A stretch of DNA of 64,000 nucleotides from Geosiphon pyriformis uo1 (GCA_016748015.1 JAAOMT010000543.1:62001-126000); one strand, 5' to 3'; counted from the first letter of the stretch, positions 18,815 through 64,000 are shown. The notes: generated by a model from the letters alone, not told the origin. Program-made: numbers and translations.

Positions 18815-19373
18815 TCCAAAGAATACGTCACCAATCCTCTTTGTTCCAATGCCTGTAGATTTTAGCTCACGTTGACCCGTTTTACTTCATTAATCATTGG
18901 CTTCTTACGCATTATATAGCATTTAATATTGTTTTTTATTATACTACCAAATTTGGGTTTTAGATGAGATGTTTTGGCATCTTTCTTATTACTGCATTCT
19001 TTTTGATTTCCCGGGGAATTCGACGTTCAGAACGTTTATCAATAATAGATTTCGACCCATTATTATTTCTTTTTTAAATAATCACTATTTATTGTTAATA
19101 CTAATCTTTTAAGGCAATTTTTAACACAAGGACGGGACCGTCCAATAGTGTGCGCGATTTTTACAGCGGAGATACTTTCTTGTGTATTTTTACAGTATAA
19201 CAGTATACATTTCAAATTTTCAAGTCATTCTTTAATTAAATAATAAATTAAACGAAGGACGAATATCTTTTGTTATTATTAACAATAACCATGCAAGTTC
19301 AATTTTAAGGTACTTAGTATTATGGCAATCTTACGTTTTTGCTGAAATCGTCCTAGTTTGTGTGACCCATGTG
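18815..19373 (-). pseudogene. Second Tc1/mariner remnant (N-terminal HTH to first catalytic Asp)
   Basis: Minus strand: SAVKIAHTIGRSRPCV (HTH), IDKRSERRI, RKKPMINEV, YRHWNKEDW*RILWTDESSI. Possible terminus TA|CACATGGGTCACACAAAC near 19373. Confidence 0.7.
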
Positions 19374-20504
19374 TACATTTCAAATGATTACTTGCAGAAT
19401 CAAACTTCGCTTACAATGTCAAAATCCTTTATACCTATTATTTGCTGCATAAATTTTTTGTAATTTCAAGCAAGATTTAATTGGGATTCGTTGAATAACA
19501 TGGGTAATCCTCTTTCTTACCAATTTTCTTTTTATTTAAATTTAAAATTATTCTTTGTTCTGTTTTCTATTATATTTTTCATAGTCTTTCATGGAACTTT
19601 GTCTTTTTCAAAGGATAAATTTCTCATTTACAACTTTGTTTAATTACTTGACTCAGGGACCAGGATTTATCCCAATTTTTGGGAAATTATTTTTTATCTA
19701 CGCTAGCATGATATAATATCAAGATTTTTCACCAAAAGACAAAAATTGGTAATGACCGTAAAAACCTGGATAAAAAAAGAACCTTTTTGATAAATCATTG
19801 CCATTTATCGTTTCAGAATATTGAAAAATGAATTTTAATAAACAAATCTGAAAAAATCAGAATATTTGTGAGAATGTTAAAAATTATGCAAGTTTTTATG
19901 ATACATAAATCTTTAATTAATTAGAGAATGTCAAAAACAGCATTTAAAATTTGAATTTTGTATAGCATAATGCTCATTTCAGCCAACAGCAATTCTGTCG
20001 TGAAACTTTAGTCTTTTCAGACATTTTCTTCGTTGAGGAAAGATCTTCATTTTCACCACCGTTATGATTGTTGGAAAGAATATTTAGTTCCCACTTCACA
20101 GGATAATATTAATAAAATCTTGAAACATACTATTGCTATGATTATCATTTTACTCCTGTAAAACTGTGCTTTAGAATTAACCTTTAGCATAGCGCTGTAG
20201 CGTGGTAAGCTTTCTTTGTTTTCCATCTAAATTTGGCCGCAACAATCTTAATAATTTAACCCCGTTACAAAGGAAATAAGGAACAATATCTTGGTCTTAT
20301 TTTACCCAAAATGGACCATCTTTTCACTGTCTCTTCAGCAGACAACGCGGGGTATTACTAACAAAGTGGCACAACTCGGATCATGTATTACCTTTTCTTT
20401 ATTTTGTGCCTATTTAGGAATCAATGAGAAATTTTCTATAAATATAGTTGATTTTTTAGATTCAAAAAAATCATCTAATATTAATAATAAATCGAAAACC
20501 AAAC

Positions 20505-20614: not shown

Positions 20615-20621
20615 TTTCAGA

Positions 20622-32028: not shown

Positions 32029-32951
32029 TGTTATAAGTAATTATTTAAAGTGTTGATACAAATAACAAACCCATAACTTGATGTTTAATAGCTATTAATT
32101 ATGATAATTTCTGAAGATTTTTATGATTTGAAGGTTTTGGTTGAGTTTTTTGTATAAAAGATAAAGATTCAAGTATTGTTTTAGTAACTTTCCAGAATGT
32201 TTATTTTGTTAATTTCTGTTTTCAGTGTGGTGACTGGTTTATTCTAGCAGTTGTGTCCTTTTGGTAAGCTATTCTTAATTTTATAAGTTTTTTATTCTTA
32301 TTTTATAAGTCTTTTATCAGGCTATTCTTAACATCAAATTATTCAGTACTTAATCTCTTAATTAATTAGTAAACAATAAAAAAAACAAAAGAGAATAAAA
32401 TAAAATAAAGAATTAGTATTCTGTCAATAGTCATAATCAAAAACTATTGGTTCAATATAATTAAGTATCAATAACTATCAACATAAAGTGTTGATAATAG
32501 GAAGATTGATTAATATTTTTTAATTAACAATAATAATATAAATTAAAAAGTAATAGATAATTTTATTGATATTGATTATTTTTACTTCAAGTTATAATAT
32601 TTTATCTTTTGAAAGAAAAGGTATTTAGAACAATTAATTATTTCTAACTTCTTGTTTGGGTTAATTTGGAAGTAAATTCTGTCTTTTTTGCTTCTAATAT
32701 TCTTGCTATATATACATATTTCTCATTATATGAGATCTCACACATTTATGAGCAATATGTTATAATTTCTCAAACAATACTCATATTGTTAAGCAATATG
32801 TCATAATTTTTTAAAAATGTTTCATATTGCTGAGCAATATGCTCTAATTTACTAACAATATGTTCACATGTTAATTACTATTCTTTTATTAGTCTATTTT
32901 TTCTATTTGTTTTTTCTACTACTTTTTTTGTACTCTTTTTTATAAGTAATA
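32029..32951 (-). repeat. 3' LTR of Gypsy element (~923 bp)
   Basis: Colinear with 43994-44932; differences are mostly transitions. Confidence 0.9.
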
Positions 32952-35770: not shown

Positions 35771-38740
35771 TGTTACCGAAAGATTTTCACATTTTTCAAT
35801 GCAAAAATTACAACACATACAATGAAAATTAACATCAAAATCATGCAAAAAAGGCCTACATTATCACACTTAATCAACAAAATCAGCCAGCAATCTGGAA
35901 ATAAATGATCAGTAATCAATCTAATTACAACAAAAAAATATGGCACAATCCAACAGTTTAACTAAGTTGGATATAAAGAAATCTTGGCAAATTAAAAAAC
36001 ACCAATGGAAATGAATGATTGATGCATGTAATCAGATAACAACAGGTTTTGTTATGCTCCAAAATTCTCATACACCCTTATTAGAACAATCTAACATTCC
36101 AGATCTGTGATCAATGGTTAAAAGTAGTTACCAAGAAATGTAATCAATTGATCTACTTCTGATTATGTTGATCATAATTACAATTGGTATCATTGATTTA
36201 CAATCAATGTTCTAGATCCAGCCATCTAAAATCTGATCATTTAAATTACTAGCTTTTGGATAAATAACAGGCCAAATAAGCTCATCATAAATTGATTAAT
36301 TAAATGTATATAAATAATTGATGTATTTTAAATAGTTATAATATAGTATGTAGATCTGATGTAATTTAGCTATATATACAGCTCCTTTGTTAGTTCAGAA
36401 AAGTATCAGTTCAATACTGAGCCAACTCTTTGCTATAGTTTTATAGTGAGCAGTTAGTTTTTTCCTCTACTTTTTACACTCTCTCTCCCCTTTCTATGCT
36501 CTAAATACTTGTCATTACAATCTCAAATATGTCTTCCCATATTTCTTATCATCATTTGGAATCATGTTGTTTATAATCTTTTACTTACTTGTTATCACCA
36601 TTTTAAGTTGTTCTATTACTTCCGATCTTTTAAATCATGTGTTATCATCATTTCACATTAAGTCTTGTTTCACCAAACAAGTTGTTAAATATAAAAATAA
36701 GTAATAAAGTATCATATTGTTAGAGAGTGGTCTCAACAATAAAAAGTTTAAGCAAAATCTATTTCAGTTATGTTTAACTTTTATAATTTCTTTTATAATT
36801 CCTATAACTTTGTTTTCAAAGTGGGCATTTAAACACCACACCCTTTTGACGACTAATTAAAAGAATTTTGGTTACATATTTCTTTGAGTAATTGGTTTCA
36901 CTCCTTGTTGCTGGTTGCACTTTTGATACATATAAAGAGATGTGACTTTTCTTTTCTCTTTTTCAAATACTTAAGACTGGTTCTTGCCCAAAAACAAATA
37001 ATAATGACAATACTTTCTTTTACTTTTAATGACCTTATTACGTACTTTTTTTGTTCTCCCACTTACTAAAATAGTCTATACACCCATGATATGCTAAAGT
37101 CAGTAGTATAATCATGGTAATGTGTGTTCCAGGTGAAAGTTATTGTTATTGCTAAGAAGTTACAAATCCTATAGCTTTCACTCAGTAACATATGGTGTCT
37201 TTTGTTGTCAGTATGGAGACAACTATGAATATTTAAATAACCTTTAGATATCTCAGAGGACTTTGATCTTCCCTAAAGAGGAAGAAAAATTTAACAATTT
37301 ATAGGAGCTCATTTTTCAAAGATGGAGAAAATGTTACTGGAAGATTTTCACACTTTTCAATGCAAAAATTACAACACATACAATGGAAATTAACATCAAA
37401 ATCATACGAAAAAGTTCTACATCATTACACTTAATCAACAAAATTAGCCAGCAATTTGGAAATAAATAATCAGCAATCAATCTAATTACAACAAAAAAAT
37501 ATGGCACGATCCAATAGTTTAACTAAGTTGGATATAAAAAAATCTTGACAAACTAAGAAACACCAATGGAAATGAATGATTGATGCATATAATCAGATAA
37601 CAACAGGTTTTGTTATGCTCCAAAATTCTCATACACCCTTATTAGAACAATCTAACATTCCAGATCTGCAATCAATAGTTAAAAGTAGTTACCAAGAAAT
37701 GTAATCAATTGATCTACTTCTGATTATGTTGATCATAATTACAATTGGTATCATTGATTTACAATCAATGTTCTAGATCCAGCCATCTAAAATCTGATCA
37801 TCTAAATTACTAGCTTTTGGATAAATAACAGGCCAAGTAAGCTCATCATAAATTGATTAATTAAATGTATATAAATAATTGATGTATTTTAAATAGTTAT
37901 AATATAATATGTAGATCTGATGTAATTTAGCTATATATACAGCTCCTTTGTTAGTTCAGAAAAGTATCAGTTTAATACTGAGCCAACTCTTTGCTATAGT
38001 TTTATAGTGAGCAGTTAGTTTTCTCCTCTACTTTTTACACTCTCTCTCCCCTTTCTATGCTCTAAATACTTGTCATTACAATCTCAAATATGTCTTCCCA
38101 TATTTCTTATCACCATTTGGAATCATGTTGTTTATAATCTTTTACTTACTTGTTATCACCATTTTAAGTTGTTCTATTACTTCCGATCTTTTAAATCATG
38201 TGTTATCATCATTTCACATTAAGTCTTGTTTCACCAAACAAGTTGTTAAATATAAAAATAAGTAATAAAGTATCACATTGTTAGAGAGTGGTCTCAAAAA
38301 TAAAAAGTTTAAGCAAAATCTATTTCAGTTATGTTTGACTTTTATAATTTCTTTTATAATTCCTATAACTTTGTTTTCAAAGTGGGCATTTAAACACCAC
38401 ACCCTTTTGACGACTAATTAAAAGAATTCTGGTTACATATTTCTTTGAGTAGTTGGTTTCACTCCTTGTTGCTGATTGCACTTTTGATACATATAAAGAG
38501 ATGTGACTTTTCTTTTCTCTTTTTCAAATACCTAAGACTGGTTCTTGCCCAAAAACAAATAATAATAACAATACTTTCTTTTACTTTTAATAACCTTATT
38601 ATGTATCCCTTTTGCTCTCCCACCTACTGAAATAGTTCATACACTCATGTCAGTAGCATAATCATAGTAATGTGTGTTCTAGGTAAAAGTTATTGTTATT
38701 GCTAAGAAGTTACAAATCCTGTAGCTTTCACCTGATAACA
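35771..38740 (+). mobile_element. Non-autonomous LTR retroelement: LTR 35771-37190, 141-bp internal 37191-37331, LTR 37332-38740; TSD TTGG
   Basis: Both repeats start TGTTAC and end TAACA. TATGGTGTC (PBS-like) directly follows the first LTR; AAAGATGGAGAAAA (PPT) directly precedes the second. TTGG flanks both sides, and removing the element restores the host RT frame LNITKYFFEKTKLKFLEH. Confidence 0.93.
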
Positions 38741-43993: not shown

Positions 43994-44932
43994 TGTTACA
44001 GATAATTATTTGAAATGTTAATACAAATAACAAACCCATAATTTGGTGTTTAGTAGCTATTAATAATAATAATTTCTAAAAGTTTTTGTAATCTGAAGAT
44101 TTTGGTTGAGTCTTTTGTATAATAAACAGAGATTCAAGTATTGTTTTAGTAGTTTTCTGAAATGTTTATTCCATTAATTTCTGTCTTCAACATAGTGGTC
44201 AGTTTATTCTGGCAGTCATGTCCTTCTGGTAAGCTATTCTTAATTTTATGAGTTTCCTACCTTTATTTCATGAGTTTTTTATCAAACTATCCTTAACATC
44301 AAATTATTTAATGCTTAATTTTTTAATCAATTAATAGACAACAAAGAAAACAAAAAAGAATAAAATAAAAAAAATAAGAAAAAAAAATAAAAAATTAATA
44401 TCCTGTTAATAGCCATAATCAAAAATTATTGGTTTAATGTAATTAAGTATCAGTAATTATCAACATAAAGTATTGATAGTGGAAAAATTGATTAATATTT
44501 TTTAATTAACAATGATAACATGAATTGAAGGGTAATAAGTAATTTTATTAATATTGATAATTTTTACTTTAAGTTATAATATTCTATCTTTTGAAAAAAA
44601 GAGTATTTGGAACAATTAGTTATTTTTAATTTTTTGTCTGAGTTGATTTGAAAGTAAATTCTGTTTTTTTTGCTTTTAATACTCTTGTTATATATATATA
44701 TTTTTTGTTATATAAGATCTTACATATTTGTGAACAATGTGTAATAATTTTTTAAACAATACTCATATTGCTAAGTAATGTACTGTAATTTTCTAACAAT
44801 GCTCCACATTGTTGAACAATATGCTCTACTTCACTAACAATATGCTCACATGCTAATTACTATTTTTTTATTAGTTCATTTTTTTATCTGTTTTTCTTAC
44901 TACTTTTTTTGTACTCTTTTCTATAAATAACA
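43994..44932 (-). repeat. 5' LTR of Gypsy element (~939 bp)
   Basis: TGTTACA...TAACA; colinear with 32029-32951. Confidence 0.9.
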
Positions 44933-46540
44933 GTGACAAACCTATTATTTATTTCCAACAAAACCAGCGGGAAAGATTTAACATCTAAAAATGAACCAAT
45001 ATTAGAAAAAACCAAAAGTATTACATAAAAAGTAAATTACCAGCAATTTGAGTCCAGGTTTTTTTACTAAATAAACTAGATAAGCAATTGGTATCTGTTT
45101 TTTCTTATATATGTTTACCAAATAAATTTAATTCTAAGAATTGATCATTCTTCTATTGTAATCATTAGAATTTCTACTCACTAAATACATATTAAAAACA
45201 TGACCAAATTGTTTATATTAAGTACAACAGGCCAAAAAAAAACTAGTCCAATGCAAATTTACACTCTTAAAAATTGGAATAAAACCAATAACAGCTTTTT
45301 TAGAAGCTTTATCAGCAAAACAAATTACAGCACATCTGTTACACATATATGAACTTAGATTGTAGTTAATAGAACAAGTTTTTTTATTATATAAAACCAA
45401 TAGATTAAAAAAATTATAAGCACTTGTTCCAACTAAAAAAATATATAGCAAAGTCTGATAATAATTTCTAAACACCTATGTTTGTTTATTGTTAACAGTT
45501 AACATCATGTGTACAGAATTTTTTTCATGAGAACTAACCACTTAGATGCATTAAATTAGCAATATTAAATAATTTAAACTCAATCAAAAGTCTTTTGCTA
45601 TAAACCAATAAATTATATTTTAATTGACACAATTTTACCAAATTTAGAGAAAACTTATTCCACAGCCAATTTGAAAAGATTTACTATAATTTTTTTAACA
45701 ATTATTTTTTAATTTATACAATAGTTTGGTTTCTTAACATCATTATTTACCAAAATTTTTTCACTAATAGTTATTTTTTTAGTTTTATTTAAACTAAATT
45801 CAGAAATAAAAGATAATCTAATAATACTTAAAAATTTTGAGAAAGTTGATGCCTCTTCCAAAACTATTAACACAATAAAAAATCTTTTTTATATTCATTA
45901 ACTTATTATCAACAGTTTTTCTAGGCACAATAAAAGCTCAATATTTAACACAAAAAATTTTGCTAAACCAAAACTTTATTTTTTCTAAAACACATAATCT
46001 GATTAATAAAAACTGTCTGAAATCATTAAACTTAAATAACAGGAGCATTAAAACATTATTATCATTATTTAAATCTATAAAAGACAAAGTTTTTAACAGA
46101 TAACTCAATACATAAGTTTGAATACAGATCTTTCATAATGTTGTATCATTTATATTCTTATTAACCATTAAAGTATTCAAATCCACATAATTAGTTTTTT
46201 TGGCAACTATATTTTTTATATTTTTTATATTTAATAAATTATTGATACTATTAGCTTTACTGCCAATTTTACTTCTCTAAAACACTATAGACTTTTTACC
46301 AAATCTATTAATATCTTCAAGTCTTAAAAAACTAACAGACAAGTTGACCATACTAATGCTTACATTAGGCTTCTTTAACTTATTATAAAACACACTACAG
46401 AAATACACATTTTTTACACACTTTTTTTTGTGTTTAAATGGATTTTTAAACCAGCCAAACTTAAACCAAAATTATTAGCAAAAAAACCCATCAGTTTTAT
46501 TACAACAAAAAAAGATGTATTAGAAGAAATAACTGAAAAA
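44933..46540 (-). mobile_element. LINE copy C, 5' part (ORF1 and 5' UTR)
   Basis: ORF 45218-45475 (LLYIFLVGTSAYNFFN..KTCSINYN..NRCAVICF) matches ORF1 of copies A and B and continues across the Gypsy into 32028. Confidence 0.8.
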
Positions 46541-47108
46541 AAACAAAAAAAAATATTATTTTATATATATATATTAAATAAAGTTTTTTATAAATAAAAC
46601 ATAAAGATTTTTTGGTTTTTTGTTTTTTAATTAATTAAATGTTTTTTAAAAGCAAATTTTACAGTATTTTTGGTTTTTTTTAGTTAATATATAGTTAATT
46701 TTTATAAAAAAAAGTTGTTTTATATTTTTTGTATTATAATTTAAATATTTATATAATTGTTATTATTATTATTAAAATATATACAAATATAAATATAATT
46801 ATTTTTTTTATTTTTTTTAAATTAATAATAACAATAATCTAATATAATTGTTTTAATTTAAAAAATATTATAAATTTAAAAATTGATTATTATTTTAATT
46901 TTTTAAATTTAATCAACAATTTAATATAATTAAAACTTTAATAGTAAAAATAATATAAATTTTATAATAAAAAAACTTTTTTCTCTCATTCGTTCCAAAT
47001 TTCCAGAAAGAGTCAAAAGTTTTTTGAAAGAAGTTTTTTACCATTCAGTACGATAAATCTAAACCATTTTTTGATTACAAGGCTACTGTTGGCCTTGTTA
47101 TTGCTGTT

Positions 47109-48938
47109 ATGAAGAAGACTATTAAAAGTTCTGGTTCTGAAGATAGTTTCAAGACTATTGCATTGAGGAAGAAGAGGAAAAAAAGTGTATTGGAAGAGTG
47201 TATTGATAATAAAAGACTTGCTAATAAAGCTTCTGGTGCTCATTTATGGAGTTCTGAGGCTGGTGACACTACAGAGTCAGAGAGTATTGACATGGAAGAA
47301 AAGTGCTTGGTTGAAGAAACCAGTGTTGACTATGGTGAAAGTGGTGCTTTTGCAGGAGAAAACTCTGATCAAACACCAAAAGATTTGCATATGAAAACCA
47401 AGAAAGTGTTAGGAAAGCCTCTGAGTGTAATTGATTATGATACTGTCAATGCAGAAGATGATGTGTTGGATGATTTCTTTTTTTTCTCACCCCCTCTTTC
47501 TATCAAGCCATCCATTCAGGTGTCTGTTTGCAAATCTTTCGCTTTGGATATTGATCTTGTGGCCATTACTGAGAAATTCTTTCAGGAAAAATTGAATTTT
47601 ATCAAAAAAAAATTTTCAGGTGTGAATGATTTTGGGGGGGTCTCTACCCCCTCAAAATTTGGTGGTATTATCTGTGTGACTTTTACTTCTGAAAAAGCAA
47701 TAATAGCTGTGGCAAATTTGGCAAATGAGTGTGGTGTTATGGTAAATACTAATTTTAAGTGCTCTGGCTACAATCATATGAATCGGGCAATTGTGCTAAA
47801 AGAGATTTCTGTGGGAACTTCTATTGAGGCTGTGCATGCTGCTGTATCCGAATTTGGGATAATTAAGTTGATCAAAATGCAACTGGTGGGTTTGTGACAA
47901 AAGGCATTTGTTAAATTGGAGAATCAGAATCAGGCTGACCTTTTGGCGTCCATGTGGTCTATTCTCATTGGGAAAGATGCAGTTTGTGTGACCAGGGCTG
48001 ATATTGACAAACAAACATGGGACTCCAGAAACAGATTTAGGGCATTACTCTACACTCTTTCTGTAGGGACAAATGCATATGATTTGTGGAATTTTCTTGT
48101 TTCAGTTGGTGGGAAATCTACTTCTGGACTTGTTCATCCTTTAGTAGGGATATCCTTCATGTGTAATTCTGTCAACTATACTTGTGCATGCTGTGCCACT
48201 GTGTGTTTTGACTCTGAAGAAGATATGAACTGGGCTGTAGCTGTCATGCCAGTTATAAAGGGTGTTGGTCTCTACTGGTCACATTTGTCTTCTCCTATGT
48301 GCTCTGTTTGTGATTCTTTTGGCCATACTTCTTTGTTCTGTAAATCAGTTGGAGTTTCTCCTATTCCCAAGATCAAAAGGACTCCTCTCTCAGCTCATGA
48401 TTGATTTAAATTGGTGAAAATTTATGAAAAAAAATCAGCACCTATCTCCTGCTCTTTGGCTTTTGGTGGAAAAATTTGGGCTTTGGTGGCTGGCTTTTCT
48501 CTTTTAGGTGGTTCTCTTAGCTATAATTCTTAACTTGGTTCCTTAAGAAATGGTAAACCTCTCCTTCCTGTGGTGAACAATTTAGAATCACGTCTAGTTA
48601 ATATTAAAAGCAGTCTTGTTAGCCTCACGGAACAAATTAGAGAGTTGGCTAAGAGGTTGGAGTCATTTGTGCCAGTGGTTTCCCAGTCTAGCCTTGGATG
48701 TCAGCTGCTGGTAACCCCCCCATTACAGAATTAAGAAAAGGATATAGTGATGGAAGTGAGTTCAGATAAAGCCACTAGTGGCAAGACTGCTGCCATTTTG
48801 GGTTCAAATATCTCATCTGAAGTTGTAAAACTGGAAAACATGTTGGAAGATCTCTCTGCTTCAGTCATGAGCCTCTTGGCACACTTGGATGGTTTGGCTT
48901 TGGTGGGTGGTGCTCCTTCTTTACCTCTTTTTCAATGA
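47109..48938 (+). pseudogene. LINE A ORF1 (gag-like; RRM-like region, CCHC knuckle, coiled coil)
   Basis: One frame with in-frame stops; CSVCDSFGHTSLFC zinc knuckle. Confidence 0.85.
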
Positions 48939-51900
48939 GTAGTCTGGTATAGAAAATTGCAATGTGTAATGTTCGTGGATTGAACAATCCTGTGAAGCAA
49001 GATGATGTCATTTGTTGGCACAAGGATATGAACAATTTGGTTTCTATTTTTATGGAGTCAAAACTTAAAGGGAGAGTTTGCCCATGGTTGGCCAGCAAAT
49101 TTGATGGTGTTTGGGTTTTTACTTCTGATCTGGATTTTGGTTCTCTGGGTGCTAGTGTGATGATTGTCATGAATTTTTTTTTGGCTAAACATATCTGCAA
49201 GGTCTCTAAGGTGCCTGGTTGGCTCCTATCTATTAAGTTGCTTTTCAAGAATAAACTTTCAGTGTTTATTTTGGGGCTCTATGCTGGTGTTTTATTGGTG
49301 GTTCGGTTTTCTTAGACTGGTAAAATCAACTCTCTTATTGCTAAGATTGTTAATAAGTCTTTTTTTGTTATCCTTGGTGGTAATTTTAATGAAGATGGTT
49401 CTTGGAAGTGTGCGAGTTTTAAAAAGTGCCTTGAGTTGGGGTTGGTTAACTTTTTGATTGGAAGCATGGTCGTTAAGATGCCCACTTGGGCAAACTCTAG
49501 AGGTGTCATGAAGACTATTAATTATGTATTTGTTTCTCTGAATCTGGTCAATTCTTTGGTACATTGTGGTGTTTTAGATGTTGGTAATTATTTTGATACA
49601 GACCACCAAGCTGTGTCTGTATCTCTGGGCCTGGGTGGTTTACTGAATACACACTTGTTTTCTTTTCGCAAGCAAGCAAATAAAAATCATTGGAAATTTA
49701 ATGTAAAAAATGCCAGTGAGGCTAAGTGGCTTGAGTTTAAGAATGCTATGGCTGTTAACGCTGCTATGTTTTCAGATGTGTTTAGTGATACTGTGAAAGT
49801 TTCTGATCTTGGCACTATGTAGGATGTCATTTGCAAGATTTTGGTTCTCTCAGCTGGTGGTACTTTCAAAAAAAGATGGTTCAAGAGTTTTGATACAGTT
49901 CACAATAGGGTGTTATTTAGGTTTTACATGCTAGAGCTGTTGGTTTCCAAGCTAGTAAAGGCTTCTTGTTTGAGTTCTAGTGTCAGTTTTGCTTCGCTTT
50001 TGGTTACATAGGACAACCTTGACTCTGCTGATGTGTTATTGGTAAAATCTATGTTCTATTCTGGTGCTAAATTTGATAACATTCATTCTGCTCTGGCCAA
50101 AGCGAAGAGGTTATACCACTTTTCAAAATTGCTGAAGTCTAAGTGCGCTGAGGAATCTCACATTAGGCAGGCTATTAACAATAGAATGGAAAGTTTTGAA
50201 CTGGATAAGAGTCATACAATCAGAAGTGTGTTGGAGTGTTCTTTTTACAAAGTGGTTTTGGACCATCTGGTTGTGAATGATGAGTTGGTTCTTGAACCTG
50301 ATTTGGTGAAATCTAAGGTGGATGCTATTATGGAAAGATGAACCAGGAAATGTATAGTGGTTGATAATAACTCTGATACTTGGTTTCATCAATACAAACC
50401 TTTGGACTACATTTTTGATGATGTTTTTTTTGGAGTAATAAGTAAGATTGATGTTGATGAGTTGCTTTGTGTAGTTTCCAGTCTGCTTGACAGGAAAGCT
50501 GCTAGTCTTTCGGGTATCTCTAATGAGCTTTGGAAACATTGTGATAAATCAGTTTTGGGTTTGCTTTTGGTTCTTTTGAATTCTTGTTTGTCTTGTGAGT
50601 TGGTGCCTGGCCCTTGGAAGGAGGCTTGGGTTTTGATGATTCCCAAATCTTATGAGTGGGAGGGTGTTTTCATGAATACTTATCCTATTGCCTTAATTGA
50701 AACAGCTCGCAAAATTCTCTCTAAAATTCTTTCAGATAGGATTTCACTGGCTTGTAGCTCCTATGATGTTCTGTATGGTGACAATTTCTCAGTTTTAAAG
50801 GGTAAGACAACTCAATCTCCTATTTTTGCAGTTGGCTCAGTAATTGAAGATGCTTTGGAAAAGAACCAAGAACTCTGGCTTGTTCTGTAGGACATGCAAA
50901 AGGCATATAATTCAGTTGGCTGGAAGCATTTTGAGAGGAGTTTGGTCAGGATCAAAATGTGTAGTAAATTTGTTCACTTTTTTGGTAGTATTCATAAGGA
51001 CCGAACCAACTATGTTATGACAGATTTTGGTTTGACTGATGGTTACCAGGTGTTTGATGGGTTGGACCAAGGAGAAGTTTTTTCCCCTCTGCTGTGGTGT
51101 ATATTTTATGATCTTCTTTTGTGTGAAGTCAAGTGTCAAGGGAATATGTGTGGTTATAGGCTCAATTCTCATTTTGTTTCTAGAAGTGGTCACACTGAGT
51201 CTTAGGCTGGGCTTTCTTCCTTCTTTGCTGTTAGTGCTTTTATTGATGATACTATTTGGGTTGGTGGCAGTCAGGCTGCTATTCAGCATATTCTTGACAT
51301 TGCTAGTGAATTTTTTAGAGTCAATGATATTTTAATTAATAATGACAAAACTCTGGCCATTTCAATCAATTGCAGGGTTGGTGTTCCATCTCTTTTTATT
51401 AGTGGTTCGCCTATTTCAGTTGTCTGTAAAAGGGAATCTCATCAGTATCTTGGTATCTTTTTGTCGACTGAGGGTCTTTCAAAGCTTAGCTTGGCTAAGA
51501 CACATTTGGATGTTCATTTCTTTACTAATTTGGTTCTGAGGAAGGCAGTTTCAGATAAGCAATTTTTGTATCTAGTGTTAGCAGTTCTCTATCCCATAAT
51601 TGGCTACAGAATGTAGCTTGGCTATATTTTTGTTGGTGTGTACAATAAATGGGATGCTCTGATTCGCAGAGGCTTGAAGCTAAAAACTGGTCTCCCACTG
51701 GATTTTTCTAATGATACTATTTACCATCCTGCCTTTTATGGTTTAAAGTTATTTTCACAGTGTCAATCTGAGAGTAAAGTGGCTTCACTTATAAGTTTTG
51801 TGAACTCTGGTGGGATTTTGGAGTGTCTGTTTGGTCACAGGTCATATGATTTACAGATTCTGTGTTGACAGCCTGTTCACCCATTAATCTCTTCTGCTTG

Positions 51901-53602
51901 TATTCACATCAGTGTTTCTAATAATTTTTTGGCTGGTATGATTCGCATTCTTCTTGATTGCAATTTGTCTTTGGGTGGCTCTTTGACCAGTGCTTTTTGG
52001 TTTTATGACGGGGTTCCTATGTCTATTGTTCTTGGCGAGTCTTTGTTTTTCAAGTTTTTATCTTCTCTCTAGCGTTTTGGCATTGCCTTCGTGAATCAGC
52101 TTTGTAATTGACATAGTGTTGTTTTTAGCTGGTGCACCTTCAAGTGATAGAAGAGGCTGGACCCTCATGGCCCAGTTCCTGATTGGTTTGGACTTTCTGT
52201 TGTATTTCTTGTGGCTTTTCATTCCTCTTCTGCAGTCTTAGTTGGTGCTGGTCTTCTTAACTTTTGTGAATCTGATAATTTTGTGTCTGCCCACAATCGT
52301 CTTCCTCAGGTTAACATTAATAGTTTGTCAGTATATACAGATGGTTCTTTGAGGAATTTGGGCACAGTTGATTGCAGAGCTAGGGCAGCTGTTTTTTTTG
52401 AGAACATTGATTTGGGTGTGGATGTTGGTGTTCAAGGTTTAGTGTCATCTACTTTGGCAGAGTTACAGGCTATAGCATTGGCTTTGGAGTGCATGCCTGC
52501 GGCTTGTTCTGTTAATTTGTTTTCGGATAGTCAAGCAGCTTTAGATGCTTGTAAGTCTGAGTTAAGCCTGGTATGCCCTGACTTTCGCAATCAATGTTGG
52601 GTTGAGTGTTGGCATATTCAGAATGTTATTCACAGTAAGAATTTGAGAGTTAGCTGGCACAAAGTCAAGGGCCACTCTGGCATTTCAGGAAATGATTATG
52701 CTAATAGCATTGCTGATGCTGCTTCTCTATCTGGTTGGTATCTCCCTCCTTGTGTGGATGGACACTTTTTGTTGGCAGATAGTGGTGTTGTTTCTGGTAA
52801 TTCTAGACACTTTGTTCAAGATGTTTGTCATGTATGCTGGGAGGTTGGTTCTGGTTCTGGATTTCTGGCTAGTAGTTTGCATTCAAATGTTAACTGACTC
52901 AGCTCTTCTAGGGTTTGGCACCCTGATTTGCATATGGCCATTGGTTTCACTAGCAGGCTCACAGCTGATACTCGTACTTATCTTATGAAGGCTTTGCACT
53001 GTCAGCTTTCTGTGGCTGTTCGGAGGCACATTTACAATAAATGTTACCTTAGTGTTCTATGTCTGTATTGTGATAAGGTAGAGGTTTTTGATCATTTGTT
53101 TTCTTGTATGGTTGATGATTTGGCTTGTCATCAGGTCCTGGAATCCTGCATGTCTTCTTAAAGGTCACTTTCTGGACTCTTTCTTTCCTCTTCAGTTGTG
53201 TTGCAATTAATGTCGATCTGCACTCCAGATTTACTGGTCTTCTTGGCTCTTTACAAGGGTTTTGTTTTTAATGGTTGGCTTCAGGAGGCTGTTGCTGTTT
53301 TCTATGATCCCAAGATTGCTGGTGTTAAAATTACTGATTTTGTGCACTCTATATGTTTCACTTTTAGGAATAATATTTGGTTGGTCTGTGCCAAGCATCA
53401 TGTTTTTATGGAAAAAAATGGCCTGATCCCAGTGAATGGGTCGTTTGTCATCCCAGTTTCTGGTTTGGTTTTGAGGTTTTTAGCTGGTGTGGTTAAATTG
53501 CTTGGTATTACTAAAGCCTTTGGCATTCTTTTTGGCTTTCACAAGTCTTGTTCATTTTTTTTAGGTATTAGTGACCTGGTGTCTGTTAATATAGTTGTAT
53601 AG
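48935..53602 (+). pseudogene. LINE A ORF2: APE endonuclease - RT - RNase H - CCHC
   Basis: CNVRGLN, LGGNFN, TDH (APE); YPIALIE, DMQKAYNSV, GLDQGEVFSP, AFIDDT (RT); VYTDGS, AELQAI, SDSQAA, KVKGHSG..GN (RNase H); CLYC..HLFSC. All fragments lie in one frame, broken only by stops. Confidence 0.92.
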
Positions 53603-53699
53603 TGTTGTCTTGACTGGCTTGAGTGGCTGGTCACATATGGTAAAATGCATGATTCATGCCTAGTTTAGATCATTTTATTAAAATTTTTATTTTATTTTA

Positions 53700-54196
53700 T
53701 AAGTATTGGCTCTTTGCAAAAACTTTGTCTTTAATGATTGGCATTAAAAAGCTGTTTTTGTTTTTAGTGATTTCAAAACTGTGAGACTAAAAGTTATGAA
53801 TTTTGTGTATAATTTTTGTCTTGCTTATAGGGATAAAATTTGGTTAATTCATGCTAAAGACTATGCTTTTATAGAGAAAAATAACCTAATCTCATATGAT
53901 GATTTGGCTTTTGTTTTTGTTTTTGGGCTGTTTTTGGTATTTTCTGCTGGTGTGATAAAATTGTTTGGTATTATTAAAACATTTGGTGTAAGTTTTGGCT
54001 TATATAAGTCTTGTTTGTTTTTTTTGATATTAAGAATACAGTTTTAGTTTATATAGATGCTTAATGTTGTTCTGATTAGTTTGAATGATTGATTACATAT
54101 AAAAAAAGCATAATTTATACTTAGTTTAGATTAATTATATGATGTATTTTACTAAACAGTATTTGGACTTTATTTATAAAACATAAAAAAAAAATA
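53700..54196 (+). mobile_element. 5'-truncated LINE 3' end with A-rich tail
   Basis: ORF 53781-54047 matches the ORF2 C-terminus (IWLIHAK..EKNNLI); 3' UTR motif and A-tract at ~54185. Confidence 0.8.
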
Positions 54197-55735
54197 AGTG
54201 CAATCTAATTACTACCTAAAAACATATAATTATATAAGATTCTATATTAAGTATAATTTATGTTTTTTCTATAACTAGTTATTTAGACTAATAAAAACAG
54301 TATTATACACAAAAATTACTTAGTATATAAAAGTCATACAAAAAATTAAAATATCTACTAATTAAACAAAGATATAATTCAAAACAAACATATATACTTA
54401 GCTTAATACTAAAATCATAAATTATTTTAAAAATTACAAGAAAATCAAACTAGATATAATTAAAATCACAAATTTATTATATAACAAAAAATCATATTTT
54501 TTATAATATACTTTTAATTTGACAATTAACAATTACATAACAGATCTGTAACTCTTAACTAAACTCTAAACCAAATTAATAATTAATATACTATTATTAG
54601 ATTTGACATTCAACAAATACACTATATTAATTACTTATTCTTTTATCACAAAATTTTTAGCCAGTAACATATATTAATAATTAAAAAATTTAATGACATA
54701 TAATAATCAGTACAATTATTAATGCTAGTATTTAGCAAAACAGTTTATTCTCAAATAATATTTAAAATCAGTTTCTTCTTAATACAATTATTATAAATAT
54801 ATAAAAATATATAATTAAAGTTTTTAATTAATTTACATTAAATACATAATATATTAAAATAACTTGAATTGTATAATTTTTTTTTTGGCTATAAACAAGC
54901 AGTAGTATAGTGTTTTTATAAAATAAAACTAAAGTATCATAAATATAAAGCTAATAAAACCAAAATAAACTTAGCTATTAAAGTATTATACATATCAAAA
55001 AAATTGCAAAAAGTTCTATTTACAATATCATTAAAACATTTGAATTTCTAACAAACAAAACTAATTGTCTTAAACAAATACTTAATAAAGTGATAAGTGT
55101 TCTTAAAAACAGATCTGTTTTTAATAACAAAAAAGTGATATAGTACTTTAACAGATAACATAAAATTAGATATAATAATAGCATTAGCATAAAAATTTAC
55201 ATACTTATTGCCAAGAATTCTAGAATAATCTTTGATCTTGTTTTAACTAATTAACAAATATTTAGATATAATAGTTTAATAAATATGTTCTTTTTCTATC
55301 TAATATTTATTGTAAAAATCAGAATTAATATTTTTCTTAATTAATTTATATATATTCAATACTGTTATTATTTATAAAAAAAAAGTACAAAAAAGAAATA
55401 GAAAAAAACAGATTATAAAAATAAGCCAATAAAAAAATAGTACTTAATAAGTAGGCATATTTTTAAAAATATGTATATTTACAAAAAATAAGCACATTGT
55501 CAGAAAATTATAACATATTTTTAAGAATGTGCATATTTACAAAAAATGAGAATATTTTCAAAAAATCATGACATATTGCTTAGGAATAAACACAAAAAAA
55601 CTTCTTTCTTTCTTTTACCCAAAATTTCCAAAAAAGAGTCAAAAGTTTTTTTGAAAGAAGTTTTTTACCATTCAGTACAATAAATCAAAACTGTTTTTTA
55701 ATTACGAGGCCACTGTTGGCCCTGTTATTGCTGTT

Positions 55736-57533
55736 ATGAAGAAAACTATTAAAGGTTCTGGTTCTGAAAGTGGTTTCAAGACTGTTGCATCAAGGAAAAA
55801 GAGGAAGGGAGGTGTATTGGAAGAGGGTATTGATAATAAAGAGACTGTTGCTAAAGCTCCTAGTGCTCATTCATGGGGTTTTGAAACCAGTGACACTACA
55901 GAGTCTGAGAGTATTGACATAGAGAAAGAGTGCTTGGTTGAGGAAACCAGTGTCAACTATGGTGAAAGTGGTCCTTTTGTGAAAAAGAATCCTGATCATA
56001 CACCAAAGAGTTTGTGCGTGAAAACCAAGAAAGTGTTAGGAAAGCTGCTAAGTGTGATTGATTATAATACTGTTAATGCAAAAGATGATGTGTTGAATGA
56101 TTTTTTCTCTTTTCTACCTTTTCTTCCTATCAAGCCATCCATTTAGGTGTCTGTTCACAAATTTTTTGCTTTGGATATTAATCTTGTGGCTGTCACTGAG
56201 AAGTCTTCTCAGAAAAAATTGAGTTTTGTGAGAAAAATTTTCTCTGGTGTGAATGGTTTTGGAGGGGTTTCTACCCCCTCAAAATTTGGTGATATCATCC
56301 GAGCAACTTTTACTTCAGAATTGGCAATGATGACTGCTGGAAAATTGGCACATGATCATGGTGTTATAGTAAACACTAATCTTAAGTGTCCTGGCAACAA
56401 TCATACAAATCAGGTAATTGTGCTAAAAAATTCCTGTGGAAACATCTTTGGAGGCTATGCAAACTGCGGTGTCTGAATTTGATAAGATTGTGAAGATCAA
56501 GATACAACTAGTTGGTTTGTGGCAAAAGGCGATTGTCAAGATAGAAGATTTAAATCAGACTGATTTCTTGGCAGCCAAATGGTCTATTCTAATTGGAAAA
56601 AATGTGGTTCGTGTGGCCAGGGCTGACGTAGATAAACAAACATGGGATTCTAAGGACAAATTCAGGGTGTTGTTTTACACTCTTCTCATAGGAATGAACA
56701 CTCATAATTTGTGGGATTTTCTCAGTTTGGTGGGTGGAAAAACATGTGTCATTGGATGCAATTCTGTCAACTACACTCATGCGCGCTGTGCTACTGTGGG
56801 CTTTGAGTCTGAGGAAGTTCTTTTGCAGACTATGGCTAACACACCAGTTATAAGAGATGTGGGTTTTTACTGGTCATGTTTGTCTTCTGCTGTATGCTCT
56901 TTCTGTGGTTCTCTTGGCCATACCTCATTAGCCTACAAGTTGGCTGGTGCTTCTTCCATTCCAAAGAGCAAAAGGACTCCCATCTTGGCTCAGGATTGGT
57001 TTAGGCTTGCAAAGATTTACGAGAGGAAGTCTGCCCTAATTTCTCATCTTTTGGCTTTTGGTGGAAAGACTTGGGTATCAGTGATTGGCTCTCCTTCTCT
57101 GGGTGCTTCACATAGGTTCAATTTTCAGCTTGGTTCTATTGAAAATGGTAAACCTCTTCTTCTGGTAATGAATGATTTAGAAAGACATTTGGTTCGCATT
57201 AAAAGCAGTCTTACCAGCCTCGCAGAACAAATTAGTAAGTTGGCTAAGAGGTTGGAATCGTTCATGCCGGCAGTTTCTCAGCCTAGCCCTGAATGTCAGC
57301 TGCCAGTGACTTCCCTATTGCAGAATCAAGGAAAGAATATAGTGATGGGAATGGGTTCAGGTGATGCCACTAGTGACAAGACTGCTGTCATTCTGAGTTC
57401 AACTGCCTCACCTAAGGTTATAAAATTAGAAAACATATTGGAAGGTCTCTCTGCTTCAGTTATGTGTCTATCAGTGCACTTGGATGGTTTGGCTTTGGCA
57501 AGTGGTGCTTCTCCTCTACCTCTTTCTCAATGA
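55736..57533 (+). pseudogene. LINE B ORF1
   Basis: Homologous to ORF1 of copy A; one stop (56144) and one frameshift (~56425). Confidence 0.87.
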
Positions 57534-60500
57534 GTGGTTTGGTATAGAAAATTGCCACATGTAATGTTTGTAGGTTGAACAATCCTGCGAAGCAAGATGA
57601 TGTTATTTATTGGCACAAGGATATAAACAATTTGGTTTCTATTTTTACGGAGTTAAAGCTTAAAGAGAAAGTTCGCCCATAGTTGGCTGACAAATTTGAT
57701 GGTGTTCGGGTTTTTACTTCTGGTCTGGATTCTGGTTCTTTGGGTGTTGGGGTGTTAATTGTCATGAATTTTTTTTTAGCAAAACACATCTGCAAAGTCT
57801 CTGAAATACCTGGTCGGCTCCTATCTATCAAGTTGCTTTTCAAAAATAAACTTTCAGTGTCTATTTTGGGGCTCTATGCTGGTGCTTCATTGGTGGTTCA
57901 ATTTTTTCAGGCTGAAGAAATCAACTCTTTCATTGCTAAAGCTGTTAATGAGTCTTCTTTTGTTATTCTTGATGGTGATTTTAATAAAGATGGTTCTCAC
58001 AAATGTGCCAGTTTCAAAAAATGTTTTGATTTAAATTTGATTAACTCTCTGAAGGGGAGCTCTTTTGTGAAGTTACCTACTTGGTACAATTCTTGTGGTA
58101 TCACTAAGACAATTGACTATGGGTTCATTTTTTTTAATTTGGTTGGTGTGGTGGTGAATTGTGGTGTGGATGGTGTTGAGGACTATTTTAATACCAATCA
58201 CAAGACTATTTATGTTTCTGTGAAACTGGGTGGCCTGCTCAATGTCCAATTGAACTCACTGTGCAAACAAGCAAATAGAAATTGTTGGAAATATGATATC
58301 AAAGATGCCAGTAAGATTAAGTGGTCAGAATTCAAGAATGCTACGGCTGCTAATGCTGTTATGTTCTCGGATGAGTTTGTTACAGCTAAGCAGTTTTCTG
58401 ATCTGAATGTGATGTGGGACATTATTTGTAAGGTTATGGTTCTTTTGGCTAGTGGAACATTCAAGAAAAAATGGTTTAAGAGTTTTGATTGTGTTTTTAA
58501 TAAGGTGTCTTCCCAGTTTTATAAACTGAAGCTACATGTGTCTAAAATGGTGAAGGCTTCTTGGTTGGTTTCTGGTGGAGATTTTGCCTTGTTGTTGGAT
58601 ACTTGGAACAGGCTTAATTCTGTGAACACTTCGCCAGTAAGATCTCTGCTTCTTTCTGGTGCCGGTTTTGATGCAATCTGTTCTGGGCTGGCTAAGGCGA
58701 GGAAGTCTTACCACTTTTCTAAGTTGTTGGAATCTAAGCATACTAAAGAATCTCATATAAAACAGGCTGTTAAGAGAAGAATAGAGAGTTTTGAGGTGGA
58801 TAAGAGTCACACCATTAGAAGTGTTTTAGAGCATTTTTTTTGTAAAGTGGTGTTGGATCATTTGGTGGATGGTGGGGAGTTGGTCTTGGAGTCTGAGTTG
58901 ATTAAATCTAAGATAGATGGAATCATGGAGGGTTGGACTAGAAAATGTGTGGTGGCTTCTGATATCTCTGGTGATTGGGCAATGCAATTTCGGCCTTTGA
59001 ATCATGTCTTTGATAGTGTTTTCTCTGATGTGATGCATTCAATTGGTTTTAATGAGATGTTTGGTGTTATTTCAAATTTGCCCAATGAAAAAGTGGCTGG
59101 TCTTTCTGGTATTACTAATGAACTTTAGAAACACTGTGACAAATCAGTCTTGGATATGCTTTTGGTGCTCTTAAATTTTTGTTTGGATTGTGAGTTAGTG
59201 CCTGGATCTTGGAGGGAAGTCTGGGTCTCAATGATATCTAAACCTTACAAGTGGGAGGAGGTTCTTACAAATACCCACCCCATTGCTTTGATTGAGACAG
59301 CTTGCAAGATTCTTTCCAAGATTTTTTCAGATTGAATTTCTCTGACTTGTAGCATTTTTGATGTTTTCTATGAAGACAATTTCTCTGTTCTAAAAGATAC
59401 ATCTACTCAATCACCTATCTTTACTATTGGTTTGGTAATCGAAGATGCTTTGGAAAAGAATCATGAGTTGTGGCTGGTTTTACAGGATATGTGCAAAGCT
59501 TATAATTCTGTTGGTTGGAAGCATCTCAAGAGAAGTTTAATTAGGATCAAAATGTGTAACAAATTTATCAGATTTTTTGGTAGCATTCATAATGATTGCA
59601 CTAACAGAGTAATGACAGATTTTGGTTTGACTGATGGATATTATGTTCATGATGGATTGGATCAGGGAGAGGTTTTTTTGTCACTTCTTTGGCGCATATT
59701 TTATGACTCATTTTTGTGTGAAGTTAAAAGACAGAAGAGCATTTGTGGTTACAAGTTGATTTCTCATTTTATTTCTAAGACTGGCCAGGTGGAATTTCAA
59801 GCTGGGCTGACATTGTTTTTGGCCACTGGTGCTTTTGTTAATGATACTATCTGGGTCGGTAGCAGCCAGGCTGCTATACAACACATCCTCAATGTTGCTA
59901 GTGATTTCTTTTGTTTAAATGACATTTCGATAAACAATGACAAGACTGTGGTCATTCCTATCAACTATTAGATCACTGCTTCTTATCTAACTATCAGTGG
60001 TCTGCCAATTTTCATTACTAAAAGAGATGAACCTCATCATTATCTGGGGATTTTTTTATTTTCTGAAGGTTTTTCAAAGCTTAGCTTGGTTAAAACACAT
60101 TTAGATGTTTGGTTTTTTGTCAATCTCATTCTAAGAAAAGTTATTTCAGATAAACAGTTTGTTTATTTGGTGTCTTTAGTTCTCTTTCTTATTGTCAGCT
60201 ACAGAACTCAGTTCAGTTTTATTCCTCTCAGTGTGTATATTAAATGGGATGCTTTGATTCGCAAGAGCCTAAAATTCAAATCTGGGCTGCCTCTGGACTT
60301 TCCCAATGATGCACTTCATCATCTTTCTTTGTACAATTTAAAAACTTTTGAACAGATTCAGGCTGAGAGCAAGTTGGCTTCTGTTATTGCTTTTGCGAAT
60401 TCAGTTGGTGTTTTGGGACACTTGTTTTCTTATAGATTTCACGATTTCCAGATTCTTAGCTGGCGTCCTTGTCACCCTTTGTTGTTTCCTGTTTGTGTTA

Positions 60501-62218
60501 GAATTAGCTCTTCAAACAACTTTTTGGCAGGTGTGGTTTGTATTTTTTCTGGGTGTAATTTATCTTTGGGTAGCTCTCTGGCTGGTGTTTTTTGTTTTCG
60601 GAGCAGTACTCTTATGTCTCTAGTTCTTAGCAAGGCAATTTTTTTCAAATGTGTCTCTTCCCTCAGGCATTATGGTATTGCTTTCGTAGAACAGCTTTGT
60701 GACCAAAATGGCGTTGTTTTTGATTGGAAGACTTTCAAGCATTGGAAAAGACTGAACCCCTGTGGCCCAGTCCCCTTCTGATTTAATCTCTCTGTTCATT
60801 TTCTTGGTGGTGTTGTTTCTCCTTCTGGTTGTTCTCCTTATGAGGGTGTTTGTGGCTCTTCTGACATTTGTCAGTCTCTTGGTTTTGGTGTTATTTGTAA
60901 TAATCTGTTGAATGTTGGTGCTGCCCGCATCTCTGTGTATACAGATAAATTTCTAAGTAACTTGGGCACTGTTGACATATTGGCTAATGCTGCAGTTTTC
61001 TTTAAAAACATTGATTCAGATCTGGGTGTGGGGGTTTCTGGTTTGGTTTCTTCTACTTTGGCAAAGTTGCAGGCCATTGCTTTAGCTCTTGAGTGTGTTC
61101 CTTTTTTTCGTTTGGTTGACTTGTTCTCAGACAGCCAGACGGCTTTAGATACTTGCAGGTCAGAGTCTTTATTGGTTGGCCCTGATTTCAGGAATTGTTG
61201 TTGAATTGAACGTCGTCACATTACCAATGTCATTCGTTGCAAAAATTTGGATGTTAATTAGATTAAGGTTGTGGACTATTTGGGTGTTTCAGGCAATGAG
61301 CATGCTGATGCACTTGCTAAGAATACTGCTCTTTCTGCTTGGCACCTGCCCCATTTAGTCAGTGAGAGGTTTTTGAAAACTGGTGTTGATACGGTTTTTG
61401 GTAATTCGAGGCATTTTGTTCATAATGTATTCAAGTCAATCTATCATATGCATTGGGAAATTGGTTCTGGTTCCCAGGTTGTTCCAAGTTGTTTGTGTGC
61501 TGATATTGACTGGTTGAGGTCTTTTCTGGTTTGGCACCCTGACTCCCATTTGGCTTTGGGCTTTACTAGTGTGAGAACTGCTGGCCTTCAGATGTACTTT
61601 ATGAAGGCTCTTCATTGTCAGCTTCCTGTTGCTGTGTGGAAGTGTTTATATAATAGAAGTTATCCCAGTGTGGTGTGTTTGTTTTGTGGTGATATCGAAG
61701 TTTCGGACCATATTTTTTCTTGTCCGTTTGATACTGCTGGTCGTGTTCAGTTGTTAAATGCTCATGCATTAGCTTGGGAGGCACGTTCTGGTTTGGTTCA
61801 GTCTTCTTCGTGTGTCTCACAATTGTTGTCTTCTTGTGTTGCTAACATTGCAGTTGGTGCTGCTCTGTACAAGGGCTTTGTTTTTGGTAATTGGTATCGT
61901 GAATTGGTTTTGGTTTTCAGAGATTTCAAGATTGCAACGTCAGTCATTGTGGATTTTGTGCATGCATTTTGCCTCTCTTTTCAGGACAATATTTGGCTGG
62001 TCTGTGCTAAATACTGGGCTTTCATGGAGAAAAATGGGCTAATTCCATGTGATGGTTCTATCTCAGCTTCAGTTTTTGATTCTTCTATATTGTTTTCCTC
62101 TGGTGTGGTTAGATTGTTGGGTGTTGCTGAGGCTTTTGGTGTTGGTTTTGGGTTTTGCAAGTCTTGTTTGTTTTTTTCTGGTATTGGTAACGAAATCTCC
62201 ATTCATATAGGTGCTTAG
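57530..62218 (+). pseudogene. LINE B ORF2: APE - RT - RNase H - CCHC
   Basis: MSGLV*KIATCNV..; GDFN, TIDY, THPIALIE, DMCKAYNSV, GLDQGE, AFVNDT, VYTD, SDSQ, GNEHAD, CLFC..HIFSC. Single frame with in-frame stops. Confidence 0.92.
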
Positions 62219-64000
62219 TGTCATTTTGATTAGTCTGAATGACTAGTTACATATAGAAAAAGCATGATTCACACCTAATTTAAATCATTTGAATGGTGTA
62301 TAGTACTAGGTTGCGTTTGGACTTCACTTATTAAAAAAATAAAATAAAAATAAAAAATAAACACAATTTTAAAAAGTAATATAAAAAAAATAAAAATATG
62401 TGAAATTTTGTATAATAAGAAATATATATATATAATAGTAATATCAAAAAAAAGAAAACCATTTATAAATTCTTAGTTAGTTAAACAATAATATTCATAA
62501 TATATTCTTTTCTTTAAAAATAATTTTTTATATCTTAAAATAGAATTATCTAAATATTAAATAAAATTATTATTTTATTATTTAATTTATGTTATTTTTT
62601 TTATTAGATTAAAATTGTTATTTACTGATTTTCTTTGTAATTTATGCTAATAACATTTGTTACTTAATTACATAAGACCAATAACTCTTAATTATGATTA
62701 TTAATAGGATACTAATTTTTTATTTTTTTTATTATTATTTTTATTTTACTTCTCTTTTATTTATTTTTGTTTTATGTTGTATACTAATTAATTAAAAAAT
62801 TAAGTACTAAAATATTAACATTAAGAATAGCCTAAAAAAAACCCATGAAACAAGAATAAAACTTAAGAATAACTTATTAAAAAAACATAACTGCCAAATT
62901 AAACCAGCCTTTACACTAAAAATAAATATTCAAAAAAACAACTATTAAGTAAATTTTTGTTTATTATACAAAAAACTCAACCAAAACCTTCAAAAATTAT
63001 TAATAATATAATTAGTTATTAAGCACCAAATTACAAGTTTGTTATTTATTCTAATGTCTCAAATAATTACTTATAATATTTAATACTCTTTATAAGATAT
63101 AATACAACAAAGAACAAGCACTAGTATTAACTATCTGAAAAAATAGCAGACCAAAAAATAATAGAAAAAAATTACTTAGGATTTATGAAATTTTTATTTC
63201 AATATTATCAAACTTACTTAAAGCTAACAAATAATTATTGACCAAAATTAATTTTTAATTTTTATATTAACAAAAAAATTGTATATTACTTAAAAAAACA
63301 AAAAAATTCAAATATTACTATTAAAATTTCTACAACAAACTATTATAACACACCAGTTTTTTACAAAATCATTGTTTTGTTCCAATAATTACAGAAATAA
63401 ATTATAAAATTAAAAAATACATCAAAGATTTTCTATCATCTTTACTAATAAAAAAAAGAAAAGTTACAAATTTTAGCAAAAGCCCCCAAAAAAATACAAC
63501 CATCTATCTAAAAAAGCCAAAAATTATTTTATTTATTAACTCATTATATTATTATATACTTAAAAGTATTATCAATATATTCTTAAGAATTATATTATTG
63601 TTAATTGTAAAGACACTTATAACTCAAATTTTATTTCAAAACAATTAGAGAAAATTATGATTATTGAGAATTTACAGTAATTATTTTGAAGAACTTAAAT
63701 TGTAACCAACAATGTCATCAGAACTTTAATTATTATCATTTTAACTTAATTTTAGATTCACCAGTAATTAGACAAATACTAATTTAAAAAAAAAATCAGT
63801 AATCAAAAAAATAATAAACAAAACCTAATTTCAAATAAACCAAAAATCCAAACTCTAATTGTTTAAACTTTAACAAATCTAAACAATTCAAATTTTACTC
63901 CTATTGTTAATAGCAACTTATCTCTAATTATCTGAATTAATTTTCTAATTGCATTAATAACTGCTTTTTAATAATCATTATAATAACTACTTATACCAAT

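Follow-up and report, generated by a model that had tools for sequence, protein, structure and literature searches.

In Neurospora and other Pezizomycotina, RIP (RID/Masc1) yields C:G>T:A changes only, on both strands overall and at a very high transition/transversion ratio, and leaves behind stops without frameshifts and AT-rich relics. The same combination is found in the window analysed here, a 64,000-nucleotide stretch of the genome of Geosiphon pyriformis uo1 (GCA_016748015.1, JAAOMT010000543.1:62001-126000), in which dead retrotransposons have lost C to T about 50 to 200 times as often as they have undergone any single type of transversion, in every context and on both strands. Unlike in RIP, however, there is no CpA preference, both LINEs are negative by the RIP indices, the LTR pairs lack strand-coordinated bursts, and a multicopy repeat in gene-rich DNA escapes. 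The closest working analogue is most likely the Dim2-dependent mitotic mutation of Zymoseptoria tritici: as set out in the available part of that report, Dim2 drives mitotic C>T change in repeats, more than 98% of it at CpA and with CpG spared (PMC8016269). Both cases present an almost pure C>T load confined to repeats (here indirectly), and no sexual cycle is needed in Zymoseptoria; by contrast, CpG is the hottest context in Geosiphon, by about 7-fold, and CpA the weakest or an equal one. With the CpG or TpCpG decay of methylated TEs described, in the portions available, for Pucciniomycotina, which carry a TpCpG signature (PMC3318451), and for Tuber (PMC4352252), the locus shares CpG as the strongest target, repeats having a CpG O/E of 0.00-0.24 here, but 74-85% of the LTR differences are non-CpG transitions. 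The latter source also gives transition/transversion ratios of 1.2 for Arabidopsis TEs and of 2 to 25.7 for fungi with a C>T bias (PMC4352252). Finally, a RIP-index signal has been reported, with caveats in the part of the text available, for Zoophthora radicans and other Entomophthorales (PMC11105155); there, as here, a RIP-like process is proposed outside Dikarya in a TE-inflated genome, but the argument there is built on dinucleotide indices, whereas the present case rests on a substitution spectrum, with indices that are negative.

According to the available parts of the respective reports, the AMF clade has DNMT1, DNMT2, DNMT5, DIM-2 and RID (PMC8298701), TEs of Phycomyces carry 5mC in CG and CHH (PMC11258239), and most TEs of Rhizophagus are CG-methylated (PMC8647823). 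RIP signatures are described as undetected in Gigaspora and Mucoromycotina in the accessible text of PMC8647823 (citing Venice 2020), and a kingdom-wide screen, as far as its available text goes, describes RIP-like signatures as restricted to ascomycetes, with a common CpA preference (PMC12543289); Gigaspora and Rhizophagus are listed there, and the available text and 19 supplements hold 0 mentions of Geosiphon. The accessible part of PMC11952901 puts the LTR share of the Geosiphon genome at 41%, and the term RIP is absent from it; Geosiphon is likewise unmentioned in the accessible parts of PMC13297926 and bioRxiv 2025.06.16.659975. Literature searches, which did not cover the Geosiphon genome paper, returned no prior report of such a C>T signature in Geosiphon.

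Nested retrotransposons and their age order

Host genes and unique DNA occupy approximately 1-6.4 kb and 16.7-21.5 kb of the window, and a pile of transposons extends from 23 kb on. The host genes, at 1200-6400 and 20610-21533, include CAP-domain, SH3 plus transglutaminase-like (weak Pfam matches) and Sel1-repeat genes, with CpG largely intact. Within the pile, the oldest copy of a nest is LINE C, on the minus strand, with a 3′ part at 27062..32022 (GC 21%) and a 5′ part of ORF1 at 44970..45960, the latter cut off by a 12.9-kb Ty3/Gypsy-type element and joined to the former by blastn continuity (LINE A position 1596, then 1636). The Gypsy element, also on the minus strand, has its 3′ LTR, with TG...CA-type ends, at 32029..32951 and its 5′ LTR at 43994..44932, and retains remnants of protease, RT and integrase (translation, read by eye). 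Its RT is in turn split by a younger element with LTRs at 35771..37190 and 37332..38740, TGTTA...TAACA ends and a 4-base target duplication. This younger insertion (35771-38740), which consists of two 1.4-kb LTRs separated by 141 bases, is non-autonomous, either TRIM-like or a deletion derivative. The 4-base target duplications read GTAG/GTGA for Gypsy (32025-32028/44933-44936) and TTGG/TTGG for the nested element (35767-35770/38741-38744), and both may be decayed NCGN sites.

The nesting thus provides two pairs of LTRs, each pair identical when its element inserted, together with a relative age order. The outer (Gypsy) LTRs differ at 150 of 922 columns, by 144 transitions, 6 transversions and 2 gaps, and the inner LTRs at 65 of 1415 columns, by 59 transitions, 6 transversions and 1 gap, so that mutation post-dates insertion. 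Non-CpG transitions make up 128 of the 150 outer and 48 of the 65 inner differences, which excludes CpG-only decay; CHG and CHH sites are both mutated. Per copy, the non-CpG C>T load amounts to 0.34 in the outer LTRs, or 210 (97-573) times one transversion type, and to 0.06 in the inner LTRs, or 59 (27-160) times, each figure being scaled to only 6 transversion events per pair. A 5-fold transition bias is insufficient for the non-CpG transition count of either pair; a 10-fold bias, combined with the upper limit of the transversion interval, could explain the inner pair (65 expected, 48 seen) but not the outer one (65 against 128). The load tracks the nesting, rising from 0.06 in the inner LTRs through 0.34 in the outer LTRs to 0.52 in LINE C, where 434 of 826 shared C/G sites are now T/A. 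This decay has reached its end state in a third copy, at 62394-63974 and akin to the Gypsy LTR region, which has a GC content of 17%, no CpG and 24 gaps relative to 43093-44729. Directly behind LINE A (53709-54197) and LINE C (26994-27480) lie additional 3′ ends from their LINE family, in a more decayed state.

Open frames, stops and the direction of change in two LINEs

Two further LINEs, both on the plus strand, retain their reading frames. LINE A (46969..53675) is a full-length non-LTR retrotransposon with ORF1 followed by ORF2 and with RT and RNase H matches (RNase_H, E 1.5e-13); LINE B (55594..62290; RVT_1, E 1.3e-06) is a member of the same family but of another subfamily, the two being 72% identical across 6755 columns, with a transversion divergence of 11% in ORF2. 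The best 120 of 271 homologues of a 481-residue LINE query are all hypothetical proteins of Geosiphon pyriformis, with 40-76% identity. As the preliminary description had stated, ORF2 of LINE A (48935..53602) and ORF2 of LINE B (57530..62218) can each be read in a single frame from ATG to terminal stop, through 15 and 8 internal stops, respectively, and all five stop contexts singled out there were located in the sequence. The assignment of the stops to Trp, Gln and Arg positions also holds, W or Q standing opposite 19 of the 23 in the other copy or the family, R opposite 3 and H opposite 1; the 4 stops opposite R or H may have arisen by transversion. At four of the stops (49821, 51614, 52897 and 53160), C or G reappears in contigs from other copies. 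Both LINEs have TAG at ORF2 codon 6 (48950 and 57545), where the family has Trp, which may reflect parallel hits or one shared early mutation.

The claim that the ORF2s lack frameshifts survives, the two differing by in-frame gaps only (3 and 4 codons). ORF1 of LINE B does have a 2-base gap, and the older LINE C has four 1-base gaps in about 3.2 kb; frameshifts build up with age. Along ORF2 of LINE A, no indel reaches a share of at least 25% among 10,788 contigs of sequencing run X1, which is possibly the source of the window and hence not independent of its sequence; runs X2 and X3 contribute next to nothing over the window. Ordinary neutral decay produces 1 indel per 8-15 substitutions. At this ratio, the approximately 230 private non-CpG C>T changes per ORF2 would be accompanied by 15-29 indels, and no frameshift is seen; an expectation scaled to LINE C is lower, about 1 frameshift per ORF2, with a probability of 0.15 of finding none in both. 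Purifying selection holding the frames open is excluded, given that stop-precursor codons are mutated (15/77 in A, 8/73 in B). All 375 (A) and 402 (B) codons that are one transversion away from a stop are intact. Thus, by the background clock the copies are young, which is why their frames are still open; a separate, fast C>T process accounts for the stops. This outcome, stops without frameshifts followed by decay to 14-17% GC, matches that of RIP.

The LTR pairs alone lack polarity, and LINEs A and B were therefore polarised against family relatives. Raw differences between A and B (907 transitions, 517 transversions) give no clean spectrum, because most of the transversions are older than the insertions. 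Instead, each copy was compared with the majority residue of its 9 closest relatives per block, with a similar outcome for 15 relatives, over 620 (A) and 614 (B) columns within the first 830 codons, relatives being too few in the remainder of ORF2. Counted over nonsynonymous opportunities, C>T/G>A changes number 50/493 in A and 62/495 in B, T>C/A>G changes 7/679 and 8/682, C>A 0/619 and 0/620, and C>G 1/626 and 0/635, rates that omit multi-step or ambiguous codons (9 of 76 differences in A, 14 of 88 in B). Pooled, 112/988 C>T/G>A changes stand against 15/1361 for T>C (p 1e-28) and 1/2500 for C>A plus C>G; the equilibrium GC implied by the LINE rates is 0.10. A near-exclusive C:G>T:A spectrum, as in classical RIP, is accordingly found in the LINEs and in the LTRs (144:6 and 59:6). 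Decay of conserved residues, another element of the preliminary description, is borne out across 490 columns in up to 120 proteins (the best 120 of 271), which, as annotated proteins, are skewed to less mutated, stop-free pieces: D>N reaches 19%, E>K 18%, R>K 16%, M>I 15%, H>Y 14%, P>S 13% and C>Y 10%, against 0.1% for W>R, 0.6% for Q>R and 0.7% for F>S.

Sequence context, strand and gene-rich controls

The preliminary description had placed the changes in non-CpG contexts, CpA and CpC included, on both strands, and this is what the LINEs and LTRs display. In the LINEs, 21 of 37 CpG sites are mutated, compared with 109 of 951 non-CpG sites (rate ratio 6.9), and CpG O/E is 0.00-0.24 in the retroelements versus 0.73-0.96 in genes and unique DNA. 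In the outer LTRs, 14 of 14 CpG sites are changed, with loads of 0.25 at CpA, 0.40 at CpT and 0.46 at CpC; the corresponding non-CpG loads are 0.06, 0.05 and 0.10 in the inner LTRs, and in LINE C the changed fractions are 52%, 54% and 55%. The preference for CpA (or for one dinucleotide) that is expected of classical RIP is therefore absent from the LTRs and LINE C, and confinement of the excess to CpG fails outright on the LTR and LINE data. RIP is indicated by a high TpA/ApT and a low (CpA+TpG)/(ApC+GpT), with thresholds of 0.89 and 1.03, respectively. Both ORF2s are negative (0.79 and 1.44 in A, 0.69 and 1.46 in B), and both thresholds are passed only by the most decayed AT-rich tracts (1.05-1.13 and 0.93-1.00). 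The signature is strong and not explicable by CpG decay alone, and it fails the classical RIP hallmarks of CpA preference and positive indices.

Strand skew and runs are absent from all 4 LTR copies (lowest P 0.059), and in the young inner pair the strand counts are 19:11 and 13:16. The LINEs carry a weak, copy-specific strand skew (p 0.02-0.03 for A versus B, p 0.017 for A by itself). In LINE B, same-strand neighbours number 356, compared with 324 ± 13 in shuffles that ignore local composition (P 0.006); block heterogeneity in LINEs A and B is non-significant (P 0.37).

The gene-rich block supplies two controls. Largely unique DNA at 16524..20263 is represented by two long contigs without differences and has a CpG O/E of 0.96 and a GC content of 29%, or 0.29 between 16.7 and 20.3 kb compared with 0.14-0.17 in the decayed tracts. 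The other control is a multicopy pogo/Tigger-type DNA transposon (14486..16547, plus strand; CpG O/E 0.66), for which 6 C>T/G>A changes were inferred, 5 of them at CpG. Its non-CpG mutation, at 1/140, is far below the 109/951 of the LINEs (p 3e-6), while transversion levels are similar (3/943 versus 14/6015), a comparison that comprises one copy, 191 columns, few relatives and an assembly gap inside the element. The pogo element is clearly multicopy, its contigs adding up to about 100 times the depth of the unique ones (which is not a copy number) and many of them being at least 95% alike; it matches six Geosiphon proteins at 89-96% in well-matching stretches. It has inverted ends, an apparent intron at approximately 15513-15580 (by eye) and two stops at Arg positions, and its best match (86%) is the metagenome protein P0121.

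Low-copy repeats in the same block (17400-18000 and 18600-19500) have kept their CpG, and one resembles the tail of a Tc1 transposase (by eye); their six best-supported differences are five transversions and one transition. Among the best-supported rows, counted by hand from the best 40 of 808 and the best 40 of 530 contig-alignment rows, window-derived C>T/G>A changes relate to transversions as 3:11 in the gene-rich repeats (19 rows) versus 24:6 in LINE A (40 rows; p 5e-4). GC at four-fold sites is non-discriminating, the host ORFs (0.27-0.44) overlapping with the LINE ORF2s (0.26-0.27). Of the RIP rule that duplicates are hit and unique DNA is spared, the second half appears to hold and the first does not extend to the one multicopy pogo element, which escapes non-CpG change. 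Thus, the process follows the silent, repeat-dense domain, and the one pogo copy speaks for triggering by chromatin domain rather than by homology sensing alone. A repeat spectrum equal to the genome-wide one is contradicted, indirectly, by the composition of the unique DNA and by the pogo control. Of the broad-context, repeat-targeted cytosine-mutating defence initially put forward, the directionality, the reach beyond CpG and the concentration in the transposon-rich domain stand, and a defensive role may be surmised. Of the classical RIP hallmarks, CpA preference and positive indices fall away, whereas strand-coordinated bursts are missing from the LTRs but find a weak echo in the skew of the LINEs.

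Two other sources of such a pattern were rejected. A sequencing or assembly artefact does not fit, the other copies being separate contigs of single-locus depth with many differences of their own and the unique DNA matching run X1 exactly. Neither does APOBEC-like deamination of cDNA during retrotransposition, for the two LTRs belonging to a single element carry distinct changes, and both strands are affected.

Candidate mechanisms and their implications

On balance, we lean towards the view that methylated cytosines are lost gradually after insertion, whatever their context. Transposons of the silent domain would be cytosine-methylated, heavily at CpG and partly at non-CpG (CHG/CHH) sites, the latter by a DIM-2-like enzyme, and deaminated methylcytosines would be left unrepaired, so that cytosines of either strand, in any of the four dinucleotide contexts, turn from C:G into T:A pairs. 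Such loss would proceed after insertion without being tied to a sexual cycle. Methylation combined with missing repair is the likely reason for the fast C:G>T:A change in the silent domain, and methylation-linked repeat mutagenesis is likely to act as an anti-transposon mutator. The weak strand skew between LINEs A and B fits episodic action better than a gradual process, and the implied CpG rate, probably at least several hundred times that of a transversion type, is high for passive deamination. An enzyme-driven, context-blind repeat mutator, with deamination catalysed by RID or DIM-2 and an outcome of RIP strength, is a tentative possibility for Geosiphon, a member of Glomeromycotina without a known sexual cycle.

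The same strand skew, together with the nearly pure C:G>T:A spectrum, could be attributed to true RIP, dependent on RID and triggered by homology during rare (cryptic sexual) cycles, with a broad context and many weak rounds that average out strand bias. The LTR transition/transversion ratios of 24 and 10 fall inside the 2 to 25.7 range given for RIP-type fungal genomes in the available part of PMC4352252, and RID is among the enzymes reported for the AMF clade in that of PMC8298701. Yet CpA is the least or an equally mutated context (0.25 in the outer LTRs, against 0.40 for CpT and 0.46 for CpC), LINEs A and B are index-negative, the young LTR pair shows no strand bias (19:11, 13:16), and pogo, with many contigs at least 95% alike, escapes non-CpG change, all of which makes true RIP unlikely. 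A nearly flat non-CpG context (52% at CpA, 55% at CpC and 54% at CpT in LINE C), the involvement of both strands and a load that grows with nesting age are also what a regional repair defect would produce, in which heterochromatic deamination goes uncorrected, uracil or T:G excision being missing or excluded, with CpG methylation as a hotspot and no need for methylation elsewhere. In that case, however, oxidative-type C>A/G>T changes should rise too, and they number 0/1239; moreover, the 50- to 200-fold C>T excess is at or above that of uracil-glycosylase mutants, so that we consider a repair defect still harder to credit.

Most doubtful of all is a genome-wide C>T mutator, whose traces selection or GC-biased gene conversion would conceal wherever the DNA is gene-rich, with the repeats displaying the neutral spectrum. 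The AT-rich four-fold sites of the host genes are compatible with it; however, a stretch of about 3.6 kb, largely unique and for the most part non-coding, has 29% GC and intact CpG, far from the 10% equilibrium, and the 3:11 ratio of the gene-rich repeats departs from the 24:6 of LINE A (best-supported rows, p 5e-4).

The literature searches found no report of a methylation-linked mutator of this kind in mycorrhizal-type fungi. A C>T excess of RIP strength without CpA preference exemplifies a process that index-based screens can miss, and the signature gives a testable role to RID and DIM-2, whose genes have been reported for the AMF clade. In the Geosiphon genome, dating TEs by their divergence overestimates age many-fold, and many of the proteins annotated as ‘hypothetical’ are pieces of mutated LINEs. 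If the enzyme-driven mutator proves true, it would have been overlooked so far because the standard RIP indices are blind to a process without CpA preference, and RIP-type genome defence would be either older than Dikarya or invented twice.
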